A stretch of 64,000 bases of DNA from Candidatus Magasanikiibacteriota bacterium (GTDB taxonomy: Bacteria; Patescibacteriota; Patescibacteriia; Magasanikbacterales; UBA922). The position numbers and the translations under genes were made by a program. Under the pieces are notes generated by a model. It saw nothing but the letters and a program-made list of their open reading frames with translations, was not told the DNA's origin and did no database searches. The DNA lies in NCBI GenBank assembly GCA_002716765.1, contig PBBY01000016.1, positions 47,322 through 111,321 on the forward strand. Direction: 5' to 3'. Shown here piece by piece: positions 4,600-42,504 of this stretch (position 1 is its first letter; each line of letters begins with the position of its first letter).

Positions 4600-5967
4600 A
4601 TGCTTTATCTCTATAATTCACGAACAAAAGAAAAAGAAGCCTTTGTCCCAATTTACGACCATCATGCTAATATGTATACATGCGGACCAACGGTATACAA
4701 TTATGCCCACATTGGAAACTTACGAACCTATATTTTTGAAGATATATTGCGCCGCGTATTAAAATATAATGGGTACAAAGTAAAACATGTCATGAATATT
4801 ACCGACGTTGGTCATTTAACGGATGACGCCGACCAAGGTGAGGATAAAATGGAAAAAGGGTCAAAAAGGGAGGGGAAAACGGCATGGGAAATTGCAGAAT
4901 TTTACGAAAAAGCGTTTAAAAAAGATGTAACGGCACTCAATATTCTTGAACCAACCATATGGTGCAAAGCAACTGATCACATAGAAGAACAAATCGCGAT
5001 GGTTACAGTATTACTAGAAAAAAACCATGCATACAAAACAACTGATGGTATATATTTTGACACCACATCAATTCCCGACTATGGTGAGATAGCTAATATA
5101 CAAAACCAAAAGCTTGATGCCGGATCAAGAGTAGACATGGGGGAAAAAAAGAATATTCATGATTTTGCCTTGTGGAAATTTACAAAAGAAGGTGAAAGCA
5201 GGCAAATGGAATGGGTTGCATTTGAAAAAAAGGGGTTTCCTGGCTGGCATATAGAATGTTCGGCAATGGCCGTAAAATATTTAGGTGAACAATTCGATAT
5301 TCATTGTGGTGGTATCGACCATATTCCCGTTCATCACACAAATGAAGTTGCACAAACCGAAGCGGTAACAGAAAAAAAACCTTGGGTAAAATACTGGCTT
5401 CACGGAGAATTTTTGCTTATTGAAAAAGACAAAATGGCAAAATCGGGAGAAAATTTTATCACCCTCCAAACACTTAAAGAAAAAGGAATTGACCCACTCG
5501 CCTACCGATACTTTCTTCTTCAGGCACATTACAGAAAACAATTACACTTTACATTCGAAGCATTAGAAGCTGCATCCCAAGGATTAAAGCGATTAAAACA
5601 CACCATCGCAAATATCTCAGACGAAGCCGTAGAAGACATGAGCGTGGTTGGGTCATTTTTAGAAGCAATAAACGATGATTTAAATACACCAGAAGCTTTG
5701 GCTATATTGTGGAAAGGGCTGAAAAACAATGTTGTAACAAAAGAGATGGTAACAGATTTTGATAAAGTGTTGGGTCTAAAATTACTAGATTTACAAACGA
5801 AAGAAGAAATCATTCCAGAAAATATACAAATTCTAGCAGAAAAAAGAGCGCAAGCACGAAATAATAAAGACTGGGGATTAAGCGATTCATTACGAGATGA
5901 AATAACAACACTCGGATACGACGTAGAAGACACACCAGATGGGCAGCATCTATATAAACAAGAATAA
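4600..5967 (+). CDS. cysS: Cysteine--tRNA ligase
   Basis: MYTCGPTVYNYAHIGNLRTY (HIGH region) and KMAKSGENF (KMSKS-type) motifs. N-terminus aligns with E. coli CysS. Confidence 0.9.
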   Translation: MLYLYNSRTKEKEAFVPIYDHHANMYTCGPTVYNYAHIGNLRTYIFEDILRRVLKYNGYKVKHVMNITDVGHLTDDADQGEDKMEKGSKREGKTAWEIAEFYEKAFKKDVTALNILEPTIWCKATDHIEEQIAMVTVLLEKNHAYKTTDGIYFDTTSIPDYGEIANIQNQKLDAGSRVDMGEKKNIHDFALWKFTKEGESRQMEWVAFEKKGFPGWHIECSAMAVKYLGEQFDIHCGGIDHIPVHHTNEVAQTEAVTEKKPWVKYWLHGEFLLIEKDKMAKSGENFITLQTLKEKGIDPLAYRYFLLQAHYRKQLHFTFEALEAASQGLKRLKHTIANISDEAVEDMSVVGSFLEAINDDLNTPEALAILWKGLKNNVVTKEMVTDFDKVLGLKLLDLQTKEEIIPENIQILAEKRAQARNNKDWGLSDSLRDEITTLGYDVEDTPDGQHLYKQE

Positions 5968-5987
5968 CAAGAAAAAATTCAACACTT

Positions 5988-6752
5988 ATGCCATTAACAA
6001 TAAAAAAACCAATTGTATTTTTTGACCTAGAAACAACCGGCGTTGACCCGTTTAACGACCGGATCGTTCAAATTGGTTGCATTAGGATTGAGACCAACGG
6101 ATCAAAAACAGAAAAAGAATGGCTTATTAACCCTGGAATTCCCATTCCTGCCGCTGTCTCACAAATCCACGGCATTACAGACGACATGGTAAAAGATTCA
6201 CCACATCTTGGTGATATCGCACAAGAATTAAGAGATATGTTTTTTAGTGTTGACTTAGGTGGGTATAATGCAAAAAATTTCGACATTCCATTATTAGTTC
6301 AGGAATTTTTTCGTATCGGCCTAACACTTAATATTGAAGACATAAAGATCGTGGATCCAATGAAAATATTTCAAATAAAAGAACCACGAACCCTAACCGC
6401 GGCATATAAAAAGTTTTGTAATAAAGAATTGGATAATGCGCATAATGCAATGGCAGATATTCGTGCGACTTTAGCCGTGCTAGAAGCACAAATTGACCAT
6501 TACGAAGATGTGCCAAACACAATCGAAGATATTCATGAATTTTGTTTTCCAACTGATCCGGACGCGTATGATGCAGAGGGAAAACTACGATACATCGATG
6601 GCCATTTAACGATTAATTTTGGGAAAAACAAAGGAAGAACATTGCAAGAACTTGCACTTACCGATCCAACATATTTGGAATGGATTATAAAAGGCTCGTT
6701 TTCCGACATAGTTAAAAAAGCAGTTCGCCAAGTTCTTGGATTTAAGGCATAA
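5988..6752 (+). CDS. DEDDh 3'-5' exonuclease (DnaQ / Pol III epsilon-like)
   Basis: Exo I motif FFDLETTG at N-terminus, and a later HNAMAD (Exo III H-x4-D). Confidence 0.7.
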   Translation: MPLTIKKPIVFFDLETTGVDPFNDRIVQIGCIRIETNGSKTEKEWLINPGIPIPAAVSQIHGITDDMVKDSPHLGDIAQELRDMFFSVDLGGYNAKNFDIPLLVQEFFRIGLTLNIEDIKIVDPMKIFQIKEPRTLTAAYKKFCNKELDNAHNAMADIRATLAVLEAQIDHYEDVPNTIEDIHEFCFPTDPDAYDAEGKLRYIDGHLTINFGKNKGRTLQELALTDPTYLEWIIKGSFSDIVKKAVRQVLGFKA

Positions 6753-20675: not shown

Positions 20676-21602
20676 TTACCTGTTTTTCTTTTTTGGTTTT
20701 TGCGCCAACATAATGTACCCCTGACTTTCTACAAATCGACCAAGAGTCACCATTTCTATCAATGAATATAATTCTGCAAGTGCGGTAGAATACGGATGTA
20801 GTTTTTTCTTTAAATTATATAACCACTTATTACAATTTCGTAACACGAAGAACCGTTTTTGCTTGGATAGTGCAGGATACAATTCGTCTGGATGAACAAA
20901 AAACTTTGCCCAAACCGTTGTATACATTTTTTTAATACGAAAACCAGTTTTTTGAAATAATCGCACTAATTCTTTTTTGGAATATAATGAGATATGAAAC
21001 TCCGCATGCGGATCGGTGCTTACTCCTCTTTTAAACAAATAATTTCGTATATATGCATGTTTCCCTAAAGCTGACTCACTAAAAACAGTAAAAATGCCCC
21101 CAGGTTTTACAATACGATATACATCTTTAAGCCAGCGCGGCACATCTTCTACGTGACCTAACACATCCGAAGAATAAACAATATCAAACGTATTTGCTTT
21201 ATATGGAAAATATGTCCCATTATACCATTCAACCGGTATAGTCATACCATATTTACGCATATTTTCTCGTGCCATTTCTACCTGAATATGCACCACATCT
21301 ATACCATATATTTCTACTGCGTCGCCAAAAAAATAAGTCATATCTATTAAAGACGAACCAGTCGCACAACCAACATCCAGTATTTTAATGGGTTCTTTTT
21401 TATTATGTGATTGTATATATTTTTGTATATACCGAAATAATAAAAATCGTTTTGGATAAAATATAAGCAAAAAACGATCTTTGAGCGTGACCGGCTGACT
21501 AAAGACAGGACGCGAATCCCATATTTCGGACCCATGATCATCTTTTACTCCCCAACCGCGTGTATTGTTTTTCTTGGTTTTCATACGCAAGTATTGTATC
21601 AT
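20676..21602 (-). CDS. Class I SAM-dependent methyltransferase
   Basis: Motif I ILDVGCATGSSLID. The start is uncertain: the longest ORF (to 21680) would overlap the divergent truB start, so an internal ATG (21602) was used. Confidence 0.65.
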   Translation of the reverse strand: MIQYLRMKTKKNNTRGWGVKDDHGSEIWDSRPVFSQPVTLKDRFLLIFYPKRFLLFRYIQKYIQSHNKKEPIKILDVGCATGSSLIDMTYFFGDAVEIYGIDVVHIQVEMARENMRKYGMTIPVEWYNGTYFPYKANTFDIVYSSDVLGHVEDVPRWLKDVYRIVKPGGIFTVFSESALGKHAYIRNYLFKRGVSTDPHAEFHISLYSKKELVRLFQKTGFRIKKMYTTVWAKFFVHPDELYPALSKQKRFFVLRNCNKWLYNLKKKLHPYSTALAELYSLIEMVTLGRFVESQGYIMLAQKPKKKNR

Positions 21603-21636
21603 ATACCATATATCAATCAAATAGCGTATCTGTTTT

Positions 21637-22325
21637 ATGGAAGATTTACCACACAATTCTGGGTTTTTACTTATAGACAAACCAAAAGACTGGACGAGCC
21701 ACGATGTTGTGGGTTATTTACGAAAAATAACCGGGATAAAAAAAATAGGCCACGCTGGCACACTCGATCCATTTGCCACAGGCCTGCTTATTGTTGGTGT
21801 TGGAAGAAGTGCAACAAAGCAACTCGATGATTTTAAAGGGTTACCAAAAACATATAATGCAATAATTCATCTTGGTGCCACTTCGGACACACAAGATTCC
21901 ACCGGAATAATAACAGAACAATCTAAATACACAATTCCAACACTTTCTGACATACAAAAAACGCTTCCTTCTTTTATTGGTAAACAAACACAAATACCAC
22001 CAATGCATAGCGCAAAAAAGTTAATGGACAAAAACTATACACCTTAGCAAGAAAAGGAATAGAAATAGAAAGAACACCACACGAGATTACTATTTATAAC
22101 ATTACTCAAGAAGAATATACTTTTCCCACGCTTACCATTACCGTGCATTGCTCAACTGGTACATACATTAGAACACTTGCACATGATATTGGTCAAAAAT
22201 TAACAACCGGCGCGTATTGCAAAGAACTAAGAAGAGTAAATATTGGGAAACATGACGTAGAAAAAGCGCAAAAGCCAAAAGATATAACAAAGGAAAATTG
22301 GCAAAAGTATATATTTCATATATAA
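21637..22325 (+). CDS. truB: tRNA pseudouridine(55) synthase TruB, reading frame interrupted
   Basis: N-part LLIDKPKDWTSHDVVGYLRKITGIKKIGHAGTLDPFATGLL has the catalytic Asp motif. The TruB continuation KVNGQKLYTLARKGIEIER..CSTGTYIRTLAHDIG is in the +2 frame after an A6 run at 22014-22019; inserting one A restores a roughly 229-aa TruB lacking a PUA domain. Confidence 0.75.
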
Positions 22326-22390
22326 AAAAATCCCCCGTATCGAGTACATCATAATAAATGACATAAACGACACGGGAGACGAAGTTAAAA
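22321..22390 (-). terminator. Stem-loop A1: 7-bp stem (CTCCCGT/ACGGGGG), ~40-nt conserved loop, then U-tract on the minus strand, at the 3' end of the 78-aa membrane gene
   Basis: Read on the minus strand: ctcccGTgtcg…gatACgggggattttttta. It is a paralog of A2. Confidence 0.55.
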
Positions 22391-22397
22391 GCGGTGT

Positions 22398-22634
22398 TTA
22401 TAGCCGGAAAAATTTCCAGACTACGATGCCTAGAACAACCCACCATCCTACAAATAGGTAAGTGGTGTAAATTACCACATACTTAAGGATGATTGGTTTA
22501 AAAGATCGCACCTCTTTTTTAACCATGCGCAGCCCTGCGTATGACGCATTTGTCACACGTGGGACCGTGGTTGAAATAGAGTGAAACCAAACACTCACCA
22601 CAAAACAAACGACAAATAAAACAGTGAAGACCAT
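22398..22634 (-). CDS. Small multi-pass membrane protein (paralog of the C-terminal half of 22807-23334)
   Basis: 78 aa with two hydrophobic helices. Preceded by SD AAAGGAG-9nt-ATG and a TTGACA-N18-TATACT promoter. Its 3' end abuts stem-loop A1. Confidence 0.45.
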   Translation of the reverse strand: MVFTVLFVVCFVVSVWFHSISTTVPRVTNASYAGLRMVKKEVRSFKPIILKYVVIYTTYLFVGWWVVLGIVVWKFFRL

Positions 22635-22688
22635 TTCACTTTACTCCTTTTTTTAGATTTATGGCTATAGTATATAACAAAAAATTAA

Positions 22689-22749
22689 TTTTTGTCAAGT
22701 CTATTAACACATTTGTTTATTTTTTAGCTTATTTTAGTTTATTTTAAAA
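22689..22749 (-). promoter_or_regulatory. Repeat B1: 61-nt exact copy containing the -35 TTGACA and AT-rich upstream region for the 78-aa gene (-10 TATACT at 18-nt spacing)
   Basis: Identical to 23389-23449. The minus strand reads …aatagacTTGACAaaa. Confidence 0.55.
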
Positions 22750-22750
22750 G

Positions 22751-22815
22751 CAAAAATCCCCCACATCGAGTACATCATAACTGACATTAACTACGTGGGA
22801 GACAAGTTATAGGAT
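22751..22815 (-). terminator. Stem-loop A2: same element with compensatory stem changes (CTCCCAC/GTGGGGG), overlapping the 3' end of the 176-aa membrane gene
   Basis: About 85% identical to A1. The two dinucleotide differences in the stem (GT to AC and AC to GT) are mutually compensatory. A U-tract follows on the minus strand. Confidence 0.55.
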
Positions 22816-23334
22816 ATTTTTAACCATACCAACAAACGTAGAAATTGCCTTCGAGATACTCAAGACACCAACAGAAAGCTGATATACTAACCAGGCACTA
22901 TAACTGAGTAAAACAGTAACAAAACAGCCCCATTTTACTACGATAAACGTGGTAATAGCAGAAAGAACTCTTTTGTGGCCAGGAATGAAGAATACCATCA
23001 TTCCAACCACTTTATATGCTCCAATCCACAGAAAGAGGGTGCAGCATAGCCCAACACCTATCCAAGGTAGTGGTCGACTCAACAATGCGCTAAGACCTAA
23101 GGTGGAAGGCCCATCACCCCAAAGGAAAGCTGTGACAACTCCCACAACGAGCCCCACAAACCAACTTGGAGAGCGACGAGCTCTTTTTGCTGCCCTAACC
23201 ATGATTCGCTGAATGCGCCGCTCTGACATCCACCACGTGTTCCAGGTCCACCAAGACAACACTTCAAGACAGGCCCAGATACCAATAATTTCCAAGCAGA
23301 AGCCGCCAATACTGGTAAAAAGTGAAATGATCAA
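22807..23334 (-). CDS. Multi-pass membrane protein, Trp-rich (LSWWTWNTWW), GC-rich coding sequence
   Basis: Start taken at TTG 23334, downstream of TTGACA-N17-TATTAT and SD AAGGAG. The longer ORF beginning with GTG at 23379 would include the -10 box. Four to five predicted TM helices. The C-terminal ~70 aa resemble the 78-aa neighbour (…AISTFVGMVKN vs …ASYAGLRMVKK). Confidence 0.5.
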   Translation of the reverse strand: MIISLFTSIGGFCLEIIGIWACLEVLSWWTWNTWWMSERRIQRIMVRAAKRARRSPSWFVGLVVGVVTAFLWGDGPSTLGLSALLSRPLPWIGVGLCCTLFLWIGAYKVVGMMVFFIPGHKRVLSAITTFIVVKWGCFVTVLLSYSAWLVYQLSVGVLSISKAISTFVGMVKNIL

Positions 23335-23388
23335 AATAACTCCTTTTTTTTGTATATTTTTAACAAGACATAATACCACTTTTTTCTT

Positions 23389-23449
23389 TTTTTGTCAAGT
23401 CTATTAACACATTTGTTTATTTTTTAGCTTATTTTAGTTTATTTTAAAA
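23389..23449 (-). promoter_or_regulatory. Repeat B2: 61-nt exact copy containing the -35 TTGACA for the 176-aa gene (TTGACA-N17-TATTAT)
   Basis: Identical to B1. It lies immediately downstream (minus strand) of the uvrA terminator. Confidence 0.55.
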
Positions 23450-23454
23450 ATAAA

Positions 23455-23488
23455 AACCCTCTTTATACTGTAAAGAGGGGTTTTTTTA
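23455..23488 (-). terminator. Rho-independent terminator downstream of uvrA (ccctcttta-tactg-taaagaggg with T/A runs on both sides)
   Basis: Perfect 9-bp stem and 5-nt loop, flanked by A-run and T-run. It can work in both directions. Confidence 0.7.
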
Positions 23489-23500
23489 TGGTGTGTGTAT

Positions 23501-40947: not shown

Positions 40948-41337
40948 CTATTTATCACCGTTTTTAAATGATAGAAAAAAGAACAAATTGTAAAATACAA
41001 AAAATACCAAAAGGATAAGCGGATACCCATTCGAATATATAATTGCACATACCGCGCCAAAAAGTAAGGGTATTGCCTTTTCATTTTGAGGAGCATGGCA
41101 CTCTAGGTTTCCTGCCATTAGAAGCATAATTGCAATAACAACATAATCTACAAACACAAAATCCTCCCAAATAAAGAGTAAAAGAAACAAAGAGTGCACG
41201 CAAAAATGCAATAAATACGACGCGCACATATAATATAATACCACACAACCATTGTATAACAAAAAAACCAGTGTAAAATTCCACACTGGTTTTTTTGTTG
41301 CGATTAGTATTGAAACCGCAGAAGTAAAAGAAGCCAA
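40948..41337 (-). CDS. Possible membrane protein
   Basis: 129-aa hydrophobic ORF. No SD and no motif. Low coding confidence in AT-rich DNA. Confidence 0.2.
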   Translation of the reverse strand: MASFTSAVSILIATKKPVWNFTLVFLLYNGCVVLYYMCASYLLHFCVHSLFLLLFIWEDFVFVDYVVIAIMLLMAGNLECHAPQNEKAIPLLFGAVCAIIYSNGYPLILLVFFVFYNLFFFLSFKNGDK

Positions 41338-41504
41338 ATTGCTATAAATAGCGTAACTGGTAAAATAAATAATAATACCACAATAAACCCTTCTTTTAGG
41401 ATTTTTGGGATAATAGTAAGTGATTTTTGTCGTATTTGCTTCATAAATAGTATTAGAAAAATACCTATTCCTTTTGTGTCTCTTTTCATCTCACGCTTTA
41501 ACAC
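41304..41504 (-). CDS. Possible small membrane protein
   Basis: 66-aa hydrophobic ORF in the AT-rich block. It overlaps the next ORF out of frame and could be one disrupted gene. Confidence 0.2.
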   Translation of the reverse strand: MLKREMKRDTKGIGIFLILFMKQIRQKSLTIIPKILKEGFIVVLLFILPVTLFIAIWLLLLLRFQY

Positions 41505-41860
41505 CTTGGTTTTACCACAATTTCATGTTTTTGTCAAGTGTTGAGCCAAAAATACGTACAATGACCCAAAAAAACAAAAACCCACCTGCCGGAGAGTATT
41601 CTGTATATTTTAAGTAAAATTATCTATATACCATACAACTATGATATAGAAATAACTTACTCCCACACATTATCTTGCAATCTAGTTGTTAGATATGCTT
41701 CTTGTAATGGTGAGAGGATTGGGTTAAGGAACGTAGGTTAGGGGTGTAGGTCTACCGGAAGGAGAGTCGTTGGGCGCTGGTGTTCTGATCTTCTTATCTT
41801 CTTAACTCAACCACCTTCACACCAATATCCGGGTCGATCCAAGATGGACAGGTATATACC

Positions 41861-41917: not shown

Positions 41918-42109
41918 TTAGTAGGCGGCGACAAAGAAGATGAAAAGAAGGAAGATAACGATGACCCCAATGGCCACCAAAATAATTTGGTTGATATCCA
42001 CAATAGCCCTTTCGTTTGCTAAAATGGTGCTCTCTATCTTATTGATATGTTGCTGCAAGTAAAAGATAAAGAGAGAGTTTAAAATATATGAGCAGCATGT
42101 TATATACAC
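41918..42109 (-). CDS. Possible small tail-anchored hydrophobic protein
   Basis: 63-aa ORF (GTG start) with a C-terminal TM (IILVAIGVIVIFLLFIFFVAAY). It lies about 200 nt downstream of the perfect TTGACA-N17-TATAAT promoter at 42316-42344. Confidence 0.2.
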   Translation of the reverse strand: MYITCCSYILNSLFIFYLQQHINKIESTILANERAIVDINQIILVAIGVIVIFLLFIFFVAAY

Positions 42110-42315
42110 AACGTATATACACCATGCTACTCATACATCACTTCATTTTCCTTCCTTTCCTATTATTGTATTGATCAGTGTAAGACTTAATTACATGAAA
42201 CCCTTACACAAGAAACGAGTACTGATCTGGGCAAGTTTAGAAATAAGACCCTTCTAGTACTTGTCGCCTCTTGTGTAGTGACTTCTGTTTTTTCTTATAA
42301 TTCATTGTAACCATG

Positions 42316-42344
42316 CATTATATCATACTTTACTACTTTTGTCA
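42316..42344 (-). promoter_or_regulatory. Perfect consensus sigma70 promoter TTGACA-N17-TATAAT on the minus strand
   Basis: The minus strand reads acacTTGACAaaagtagtaaagtatgaTATAATgcatgg. It points into the 2-kb low-coding region. Confidence 0.55.
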
Positions 42345-42504
42345 AGTGTTTTATGTGCTTTTTTGCTATATTTTTCCTAATATCCTTTTTTTAGGCTAAT
42401 TTTAGCCAATTTTTCCTGTTATTTCCCTCTATATATCCCCTATTTTTTACCATTTTTTTCTTAATATAATACTTTTATTATTTTTTTTCTTTACAAATTT
42501 ACTC

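Follow-up and report, generated by a model that had tools for sequence, protein, structure and literature searches.

At the 3′ end of truB in an uncultured lineage of marine Candidatus Magasanikbacteria, which belongs to the Candidate Phyla Radiation (CPR), we found two consecutive minus-strand genes, each set between a predicted promoter with a nearly identical upstream module (P) and a paralogous hairpin module (H). The locus lies within a 64,000-nucleotide (nt) stretch of DNA, hereafter the window. Comparison with related loci reveals three states of this array, a chimeric hairpin at the point where one state lacks a cassette, and a cassette that is far more divergent than its flanks. We favor, and consider fairly probable, a reading in which this is a strain-variable array of self-contained promoter-ORF-terminator cassettes (ORF, open reading frame), with the P and H modules serving as homologous-recombination junctions. 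The cassette ORFs are best read as lineage-specific accessory integral membrane proteins, namely a polytopic protein of 175 amino acids (aa) and two-helix proteins of 78 aa (window) or 108 aa (sister lineage).

Followed along the minus strand from 23500 to 22320, the locus comprises the uvrA stop codon, a short hairpin, the P-175aa-H cassette, the P-78aa-H cassette, and the stop codon of the convergent truB. Its features are as follows:

23389..23459, minus strand: promoter-upstream module P, copy 1, with phased A-tracts, the motif CTAAAATAAGCTAAAAA at 23421-23437 and a −35 box TTGACA at 23393-23398
23370..23375, minus strand: −10 box TATTAT of the 175-aa gene (17-nt spacer, TG immediately 5′, 11/12 consensus positions)
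22807..23334, minus strand: GC-rich gene for the 175-aa polytopic membrane protein (TTG start, AAGGAG Shine-Dalgarno)
22751..22803, minus strand: hairpin module H after the 175-aa gene (stem-loop 22756-22803, U-run 22751-22755)
22689..22759, minus strand: module P, copy 2 (motif 22721-22737, −35 box TTGACA 22693-22698)
22669..22674, minus strand: −10 box TATACT of the 78-aa gene (18-nt spacer, 11/12 consensus positions)
22398..22634, minus strand: gene for the 78-aa two-helix membrane protein (ATG start, AAGGAG Shine-Dalgarno)
22323..22380, minus strand: hairpin module H after the 78-aa gene (stem-loop 22330-22380, U-run 22323-22329), adjoining the truB stop
21637..22325, plus strand: truB, convergent, the conserved anchor of the array; split in the window
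23449..23487, minus strand: predicted intrinsic terminator of uvrA (fold −13.2 kcal/mol, z −4.4)

Much of this anatomy had been anticipated by an earlier interpretation of the same DNA (hereafter, the sequence-only reading), which proposed a 61-nt identical repeat carrying TTGACA upstream of both genes (a repeat finder returns a direct repeat of 71 nt, 22689-22759/23389-23459, 96% identical overall and exact over a core of 61 nt), a separate −10 box and Shine-Dalgarno-led start for each unit, and a paralogous stem-loop at the end of each. Its length for the smaller protein, 78 aa, was correct, and the larger one, given as about 176 aa, has 175 aa when read from the TTG start at 23334. It also had truB and uvrA converging on the unit; truB does so and is the sole converging neighbor, whereas uvrA lies upstream on the same strand as the two cassettes. 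The truB-[insert]-uvrA frame, which it suggested checking for synteny, is not conserved, as uvrA lies within 5 kb of truB in 0/79 related genome loci.

Array states, deletion junction, and cassette-limited divergence

The TruB of the window is closest (84%) to that of a marine Candidatus Magasanikbacteria metagenome-assembled genome (MAG), and the next matches come from other Magasanikbacteria and Patescibacteria. Among the relatives that carry cassettes and the window itself, we distinguish three states of the array:

Window: uvrA-terminator-[P-175-H][P-78-H]-truB, with the cassette order reversed relative to the sister lineage
Sister lineage (L008, L101, L103, L104; L001 and L002 partial): 117aa-terminator-[P-108-H][P-175-H]-truB
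Cassette loss (L010, L091-L100): 117aa-terminator-[P-108-H]-truB

The window and the sister lineage, in which a glycosyltransferase gene precedes the 117-aa gene, thus hold the same two gene types in opposite order. The 108-only state occurs on at least 22 contigs from several samples and projects and includes L010, a GTDB representative MAG; the 175-aa gene was not found in any GTDB representative genome, L010 included. In a more distant lineage (L009, TruB 74% identical), a 175-type gene directly converges on truB, so that 175-aa orthologs adjoin truB in three lineages with TruB 74-84% identical. Since L009 too has the gene beside truB, we conclude that it was already at this position in the ancestor and that the 108-only state arose later by deletion between direct repeats. 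The 108-only genotype does without the 175-aa cassette; the 175-aa protein is thus dispensable, and most likely serves as an accessory component of the envelope or membrane. On the other side of truB, the divergent methyltransferase-truB pair (window 20676-22325) is kept in eight other Magasanikbacteria loci (among L011-L020); the 3′ side of truB is variable and holds clade-specific genes, which makes it a synteny breakpoint.

The junction left by the missing cassette lies within a hairpin. One 62-nt stretch of L010 can be aligned with either hairpin region of L008, and the single hairpin of L010 and L091 is chimeric, with the 5′ flank and stem of one (H-A) and the 3′ flank of the other (H-B). 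The crossover falls inside the shared core CCCTCATGTCGTATGATGTGGGG plus the T-run, an identical core of at least 23 nt. Identity between L008 and L010 is 96% upstream of the cassette site and 91% downstream of it; the cassette site may also be a boundary between segments of differing recombination history.

A second line of evidence comes from L008 and L001, which share both flanks almost completely (0-2 differences per 100 nt, about 1%) and differ at 76 positions in the 800 nt between the hairpins (positions about 5800-6600, about 9.5%), the non-coding P-B module included. Gene by gene, the two are 90.5% identical in the 175-aa gene, as against 99.3% in the 108-aa gene and 99.0% in truB. Since synonymous and non-coding sites are affected and the boundaries fall at the repeats, divergent cassette alleles appear to have been imported via the flanking modules; allele import by recombination would be the most economical explanation, and relaxed or diversifying selection alone fits less well. 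We also considered a diversity-generating retroelement and rejected it, as the differences are spread across the entire cassette, promoter included. The suspicion in the sequence-only reading that the unit is not ordinary core genome was therefore right in spirit, given that genomes otherwise nearly identical may have or lack the 175-aa cassette, which is far more divergent than its flanks.

These states could be connected by a small number of exchanges, as repeats of ~23-70 nt identity would be long enough to serve as homologous-recombination junctions. The ancestral array would have been T0-P-S-H-P-L-H (S denoting the small gene and L the one for the 175-aa protein), from which H × H recombination would remove P-L-H to give the L010 state. 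If the excised unit (possibly as a circular intermediate) or a sister copy then recombined with the P module that precedes S, the result would be T0-P-L-H-P-S-H, the order seen in the window; alternatively, the same order could be reached through unequal crossing-over or duplication, followed by deletions. Recombination within the flanking modules would likewise swap in divergent cassette alleles.

Predicted promoter and terminator modules

On the minus strand, each P copy terminates in TTGACA, and the two cassette promoters are the top two promoter-like sites of the region, both with the properties expected of sigma-70-type promoters (TTGACA and a −10 box, 16-18 nt spacing, and a position upstream of a Shine-Dalgarno and start codon). 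A 28-mer from the P repeat occurs at just these two sites in the window (0 expected). The promoter position is kept in the orthologous promoters of the sister lineage, which duplicates an upstream module of its own (~48 nt, TTTTTTTATTATATAAATAAAAATATGsyTAAAATAAGCCAAAAA). Within the window the paralogous modules are 100% identical over 61 nt, as compared to ~70% for orthologous modules between lineages; that modules are more alike within a genome than between genomes points to recent recombination or gene conversion between them. With a promoter and terminator of its own for each cassette, the two genes would be transcribed as separate monocistronic units, and their predicted strong promoters are probably co-regulated.

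Within the P modules, a 16-nt motif, TAAAATAAGC(C/T)AAAAA (also written TAAAATAAGCY-AAAAA), is unchanged in 6/6 aligned promoter regions from two lineages and both cassette types, and occurs once per P module in every cassette-bearing locus. Phased A-tracts ~10-11 nt apart lie 5′ of the −35 box, and this AT-rich block directly upstream of the −35 resembles that of A-tract or UP-element promoters of the rrn P1 type. It differs from them in holding the 16-nt motif, which is invariant across lineages and partly palindromic (GGCTAAAAT(A/T)AGCC), a combination that suggests a specific protein site besides, or in place of, DNA curvature; we know of no factor that binds it.

A third promoter-like region, at 42318-42405 on the minus strand, shares this architecture, with a perfect palindrome (GGCTAAAATTAGCC) and phased A-tracts, followed by CTTGACAAAA, 17 nt, and then TATAAT; here the motif is displaced by ~21 nt, or two helical turns. 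This predicted promoter precedes ~750 nt (to about 41575) that lack any ORF of at least 70 aa and end at the terminator CCGGCAGGTGGGTTTTTGTTTTTTT. In this stretch we noted a long perfect hairpin (about 42080-42142) and a possible 26-aa hydrophobic peptide ORF; Rfam gave no match to it at gathering score. Small hydrophobic ORFs, one of 66 aa (41304-41504) and one of 129 aa (40948-41337), come right after a fourth CTTGACAAAA promoter-like site (41529-41538, minus strand, in the region 40948-41538). Exact matches of CTTGACAAAA number four in the window, against 0.6 expected by chance, and every one is on the minus strand. Taken with the third promoter, the motif suggests a curved-DNA or UP-like element, or an operator common to several promoters.

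With two copies each in the window, the P and H modules do not qualify as dispersed repeats of the REP, MITE, or Correia-like type, and neither was found in the truB neighborhoods of 79 other genomes, save for one match to the motif. That match, an exact TAAAATAAGCCAAAAA just past the RNase Y stop of a distant Magasanikiibacteriota genome (L020, 7527-7600), overlaps a TTGACT...TATACT promoter-like site with a terminator-like hairpin immediately after it, and is probably due to chance.

The two H hairpins (22330-22380 and 22756-22803) are paralogous, sharing a 29-nt seed at 93% identity in the repeat finder. As minus-strand RNA they fold at −29.6 kcal/mol (z −5.9, after the 78-aa gene) and −20.6 kcal/mol (z −3.2, after the 175-aa gene), compared with merely −14.1 and −8.6 kcal/mol as plus-strand RNA, where folding is about half as strong because G-U pairs form on the minus strand alone. 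Each follows closely on a stop codon and carries a U-run tail (U7 after the 78-aa-gene hairpin, U5 after the 175-aa-gene hairpin), the structure expected of an intrinsic (Rho-independent) terminator. At each of two positions in the stem, both bases of the pair have changed between the copies in a compensatory way (G-C to A-U and U-A to C-G). In the sister lineage, which also duplicates ~60 nt around the hairpin, the copies have stems of 9-11 bp followed by U7-8. As the hairpins fold well solely as minus-strand RNA, we take them to be intrinsic terminators of the minus-strand genes, as predicted from structure. No Rfam family was found for the H hairpins, either in the locus with E values of up to 10 allowed or in the entire window at gathering score, and the sub-threshold Rfam matches at the locus fell solely on the uvrA terminator.

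The uvrA terminator is a hairpin distinct from the H modules, and its U-run leads straight into P copy 1. At position 23477, in its stem, the window reads CCCC where L004 and L005 read CCC, and the shorter form gives a perfect stem. At the other end of the array, truB is split into two ORFs (21637-22047 and 22143-22325) at an A6 run at about 22014-22019; a TARA scaffold (L003) that is otherwise 99.97% identical has an A7 run and an intact 229-aa TruB. We attribute the split to a probable homopolymer error in assembly, with a strain-specific pseudogene as a less likely possibility. A tRNA/tmRNA scan of the window found none.

Cassette proteins and base composition

The 175-aa protein has ~5 hydrophobic helices, a Trp-rich end of helix 1, and a strongly basic loop (SERRIQRIMVRAAKRARR), while the 78-aa protein has two hydrophobic helices, one on either side of a basic loop, and the sister lineage's 108-aa membrane protein likewise has two helices. 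The sequence-only reading recognized no motif in either window protein, and our searches of all three against Pfam, NCBIfam, PHROGs, PADLOC, and PDB sequences bear this out, with nothing significant or above a curated cut-off (best E=0.02). Among 5.8 billion protein clusters, the 175-aa protein matched two other clusters only (63% and 60% identity), and the 78-aa protein matched no other cluster. A profile search of 1.84 billion representatives recovered the family members and one distant fragment (P0007), with nothing else credible; a match to a 2931-aa Gly/Leu-rich repeat protein (P0006) was regarded as a compositional false positive. A further match, P0005 (159 aa), is identical to the 175-aa family over residues 1-68 and then continues as Arg/Gly-rich out-of-frame sequence, so that we read it as a call, frameshifted or chimeric, for that same GC-rich gene. 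Searches of the cassette proteins against viral contigs found no relative, and tblastn against the 79 truB neighborhoods found no homologs. AlphaFold2, run on a 3-sequence alignment, returned a predicted local distance difference test (pLDDT) score of 46.8, too low for use. The 175-aa family is thus an orphan, confined to one marine Magasanikbacteria clade.

The 175-aa orthologs differ by 13/8/29 substitutions at the first, second, and third codon positions, with 23 synonymous versus 13 non-synonymous codon changes, a pattern which indicates that the gene is real and under purifying selection. An ORF antisense to its GC-rich part, present in both lineages, was set aside, as its extent is not conserved and the substitutions fit the sense frame. 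The 78-aa protein aligns with the 108-aa protein at 42% identity over 31 residues (E 5e-4; 1/2000 shuffles reach the score), which suggests that the two are weakly but significantly related.

The longer gene is, as the sequence-only reading had stated, GC-richer than its surroundings (47-55% at 23000-23300 versus about 36.6% for the window). The same holds at third codon positions (GC3), where the 175-aa and 78-aa genes reach 0.43 and 0.44 against 0.23-0.28 in eight neighboring genes. Across the three lineages, the GC3 of the 175-aa gene is 0.43, 0.51, and 0.51, whereas that of truB is 0.23-0.28, ~0.2 lower. Exchange with a GC-richer pool would fit this high GC3, as would GC-biased gene conversion at a hotspot of recombination, and frequent recombination of either kind would explain why it has lasted.

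Alternative explanations and implications

Several points weigh against the recombining array that we favor. The promoters and terminators are predictions from consensus matches and folding energies alone, and circular or intermediate forms were not observed. The order reversal leans on the weak 78/108-aa homology (31 aligned residues, p about 5e-4), and the 108-aa gene lacks a third-position bias, with non-synonymous changes at least as many as synonymous ones, although the counts are tiny. The 108-only contigs look like one clonal genotype (identical statistics), so the cassette deletion may be a single event and not recurrent turnover. Relaxed or diversifying selection, and not allele exchange, could lie behind the high divergence, and the presence of just two copies of each module in the window gives no sign of a genome-wide system.

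In another account, the repeats are kept for regulation only (as a shared UP element, curved DNA, or an operator for one transcription factor, together with an efficient terminator), the deletion is a one-off, divergence and GC3 are driven by selection on a fast-evolving surface or membrane protein, and no exchange is ongoing. We regard this as possible, if rather unlikely. The motif is invariant and the A-tract phasing is kept across lineages and at the third, unlinked promoter, compensatory changes keep the terminator stems paired, and the clonal look of the 108-only contigs suits a one-off deletion. Such an account is harder to reconcile with the high divergence at synonymous sites and in the non-coding P-B module, with boundaries as sharp as those at the hairpins, with paralogous modules so much more alike than orthologous ones, and with a gene order that differs between lineages.

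The sequence-only reading had instead supposed that the whole promoter-gene-stem-loop unit was tandemly duplicated, that the proteins are diverged paralogs over their last ~70 aa, and that the GC-rich copy was recently acquired. Its duplication holds for the upstream and stem-loop modules and fails for the cassette as a whole, ORF included. While both proteins are helical membrane proteins and the GC and GC3 are anomalous, the window pair shows no similarity (BLASTP E=2.6; Smith-Waterman score 36 versus a shuffle mean of 35.1, with 809/2000 shuffles as good), and neither does the corresponding pair of the sister lineage, where the small gene has an ortholog of its own. The 175-aa gene is old at this locus, being found beside truB in three lineages and always GC3-rich, and a GC3 raised by ~0.2 over truB in all three argues against a recent, unequilibrated foreign origin. 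We therefore consider this explanation largely refuted and very unlikely.

A site-specific system would account for other aspects of the locus. As in integron cassette arrays, linear short-ORF units each end in a hairpin repeat, presence (with precise gain or loss) and order vary between close strains, and junctions lie within the repeats, so that the hairpins could be attC-like single-stranded DNA recombination sites served by a dedicated recombinase. The hairpins, however, lack GTTRRRY/RYYYAAC core sites (by eye, no pair of R″/L″/L′/R′ boxes, RYYYAAC ... GTTRRRY, stands at either hairpin base on either strand), and their U-runs and G-U pairs mark them as minus-strand RNA terminators. No integrase or recombinase gene lies within about 6 kb on either side; the genes there are those for UvrB, DUF218, a 199-aa protein, UvrA, TruB, a methyltransferase, PPase, NUDIX, and IF2, with no intI tyrosine recombinase or attI beside the locus. 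Integron cassettes are promoterless and read from Pc, whereas every cassette here has its own promoter, and the crossover in an identical core of at least 23 nt is enough for homologous recombination, which over repeats of 23-70 nt (RecA-type) would be the simplest pathway. Taken together, the lack of an integrase, of attC core sites, and of dispersed copies makes a dedicated site-specific system very unlikely. We give almost no credence to an assembly artefact (repeat collapse, expansion, or a chimeric join in metagenome assembly); one short contig (L006) does end within a repeat, but at least three independent assemblies (L003, L004, and L005) run through the two repeats and the two genes with 99.9-100% identity, and the sister-lineage states recur across many samples.

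Two further kinds of locus bear comparison with the recombining array. In the LDR loci of E. coli (ldr/rdl type I toxin-antitoxin), the entire unit is repeated, its toxin ORF of roughly 35 aa included, and an antisense RNA is encoded. These and similar small-hydrophobic-peptide loci resemble the array in having tandem units, each with its own promoter, small hydrophobic ORF, and terminator, and differ in that the ORFs here are unrelated and of 78 and 175 aa; neither a toxin of under about 60 aa nor an antisense promoter was found (no plus-strand promoter-like site in 22398-23334). Marine flexible genomic islets, considered together with deletion by recombination at direct repeats, also place an accessory gene of atypical composition at a fixed site beside a housekeeping anchor, and that gene varies within a species-level population and is far more divergent than its flanks. 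What sets the present locus apart is its size of one or two genes in a streamlined CPR genome, and bounding repeats that are the genes' own promoter and terminator modules instead of tRNA genes, insertion sequence (IS) elements, or att sites.

In a wider sense, promoter and terminator modules in CPR bacteria could be the portable junctions of a recombinase-independent, integron-like cassette system, a view that we offer tentatively and think unlikely. If it were true, homologous recombination would let cassettes leave the array, re-enter it in a new order, and pass between strains in streamlined genomes with few mobile-element enzymes; GC-biased gene conversion at the hotspot would keep GC3 raised over the long term; and a single regulator would act, via the shared motif, on all cassettes as well as on at least one unlinked locus (at ~42.3 kb).

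CPR bacteria (Patescibacteria) are thought to live attached to host cells; their genomes are tiny, and most of their membrane and surface proteins are uncharacterized. A literature search covering Magasanikbacteria, membrane proteins, and hypervariable regions turned up no relevant work. For this group, the locus would offer a marker of population structure in marine Magasanikbacteria that can be amplified by PCR, a candidate pair of strong promoter and terminator, complete with a conserved motif upstream, for use in a phylum without genetic tools, and a natural test case of whether local recombination raises GC3 in an AT-rich genome. Its two orphan membrane-protein families are candidates for roles in host or phage interaction. 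On the reading that we favor, even a streamlined CPR genome would keep a strain-variable islet, at which an accessory membrane protein may be lost, reordered, or swapped for another allele at its own promoter and terminator.

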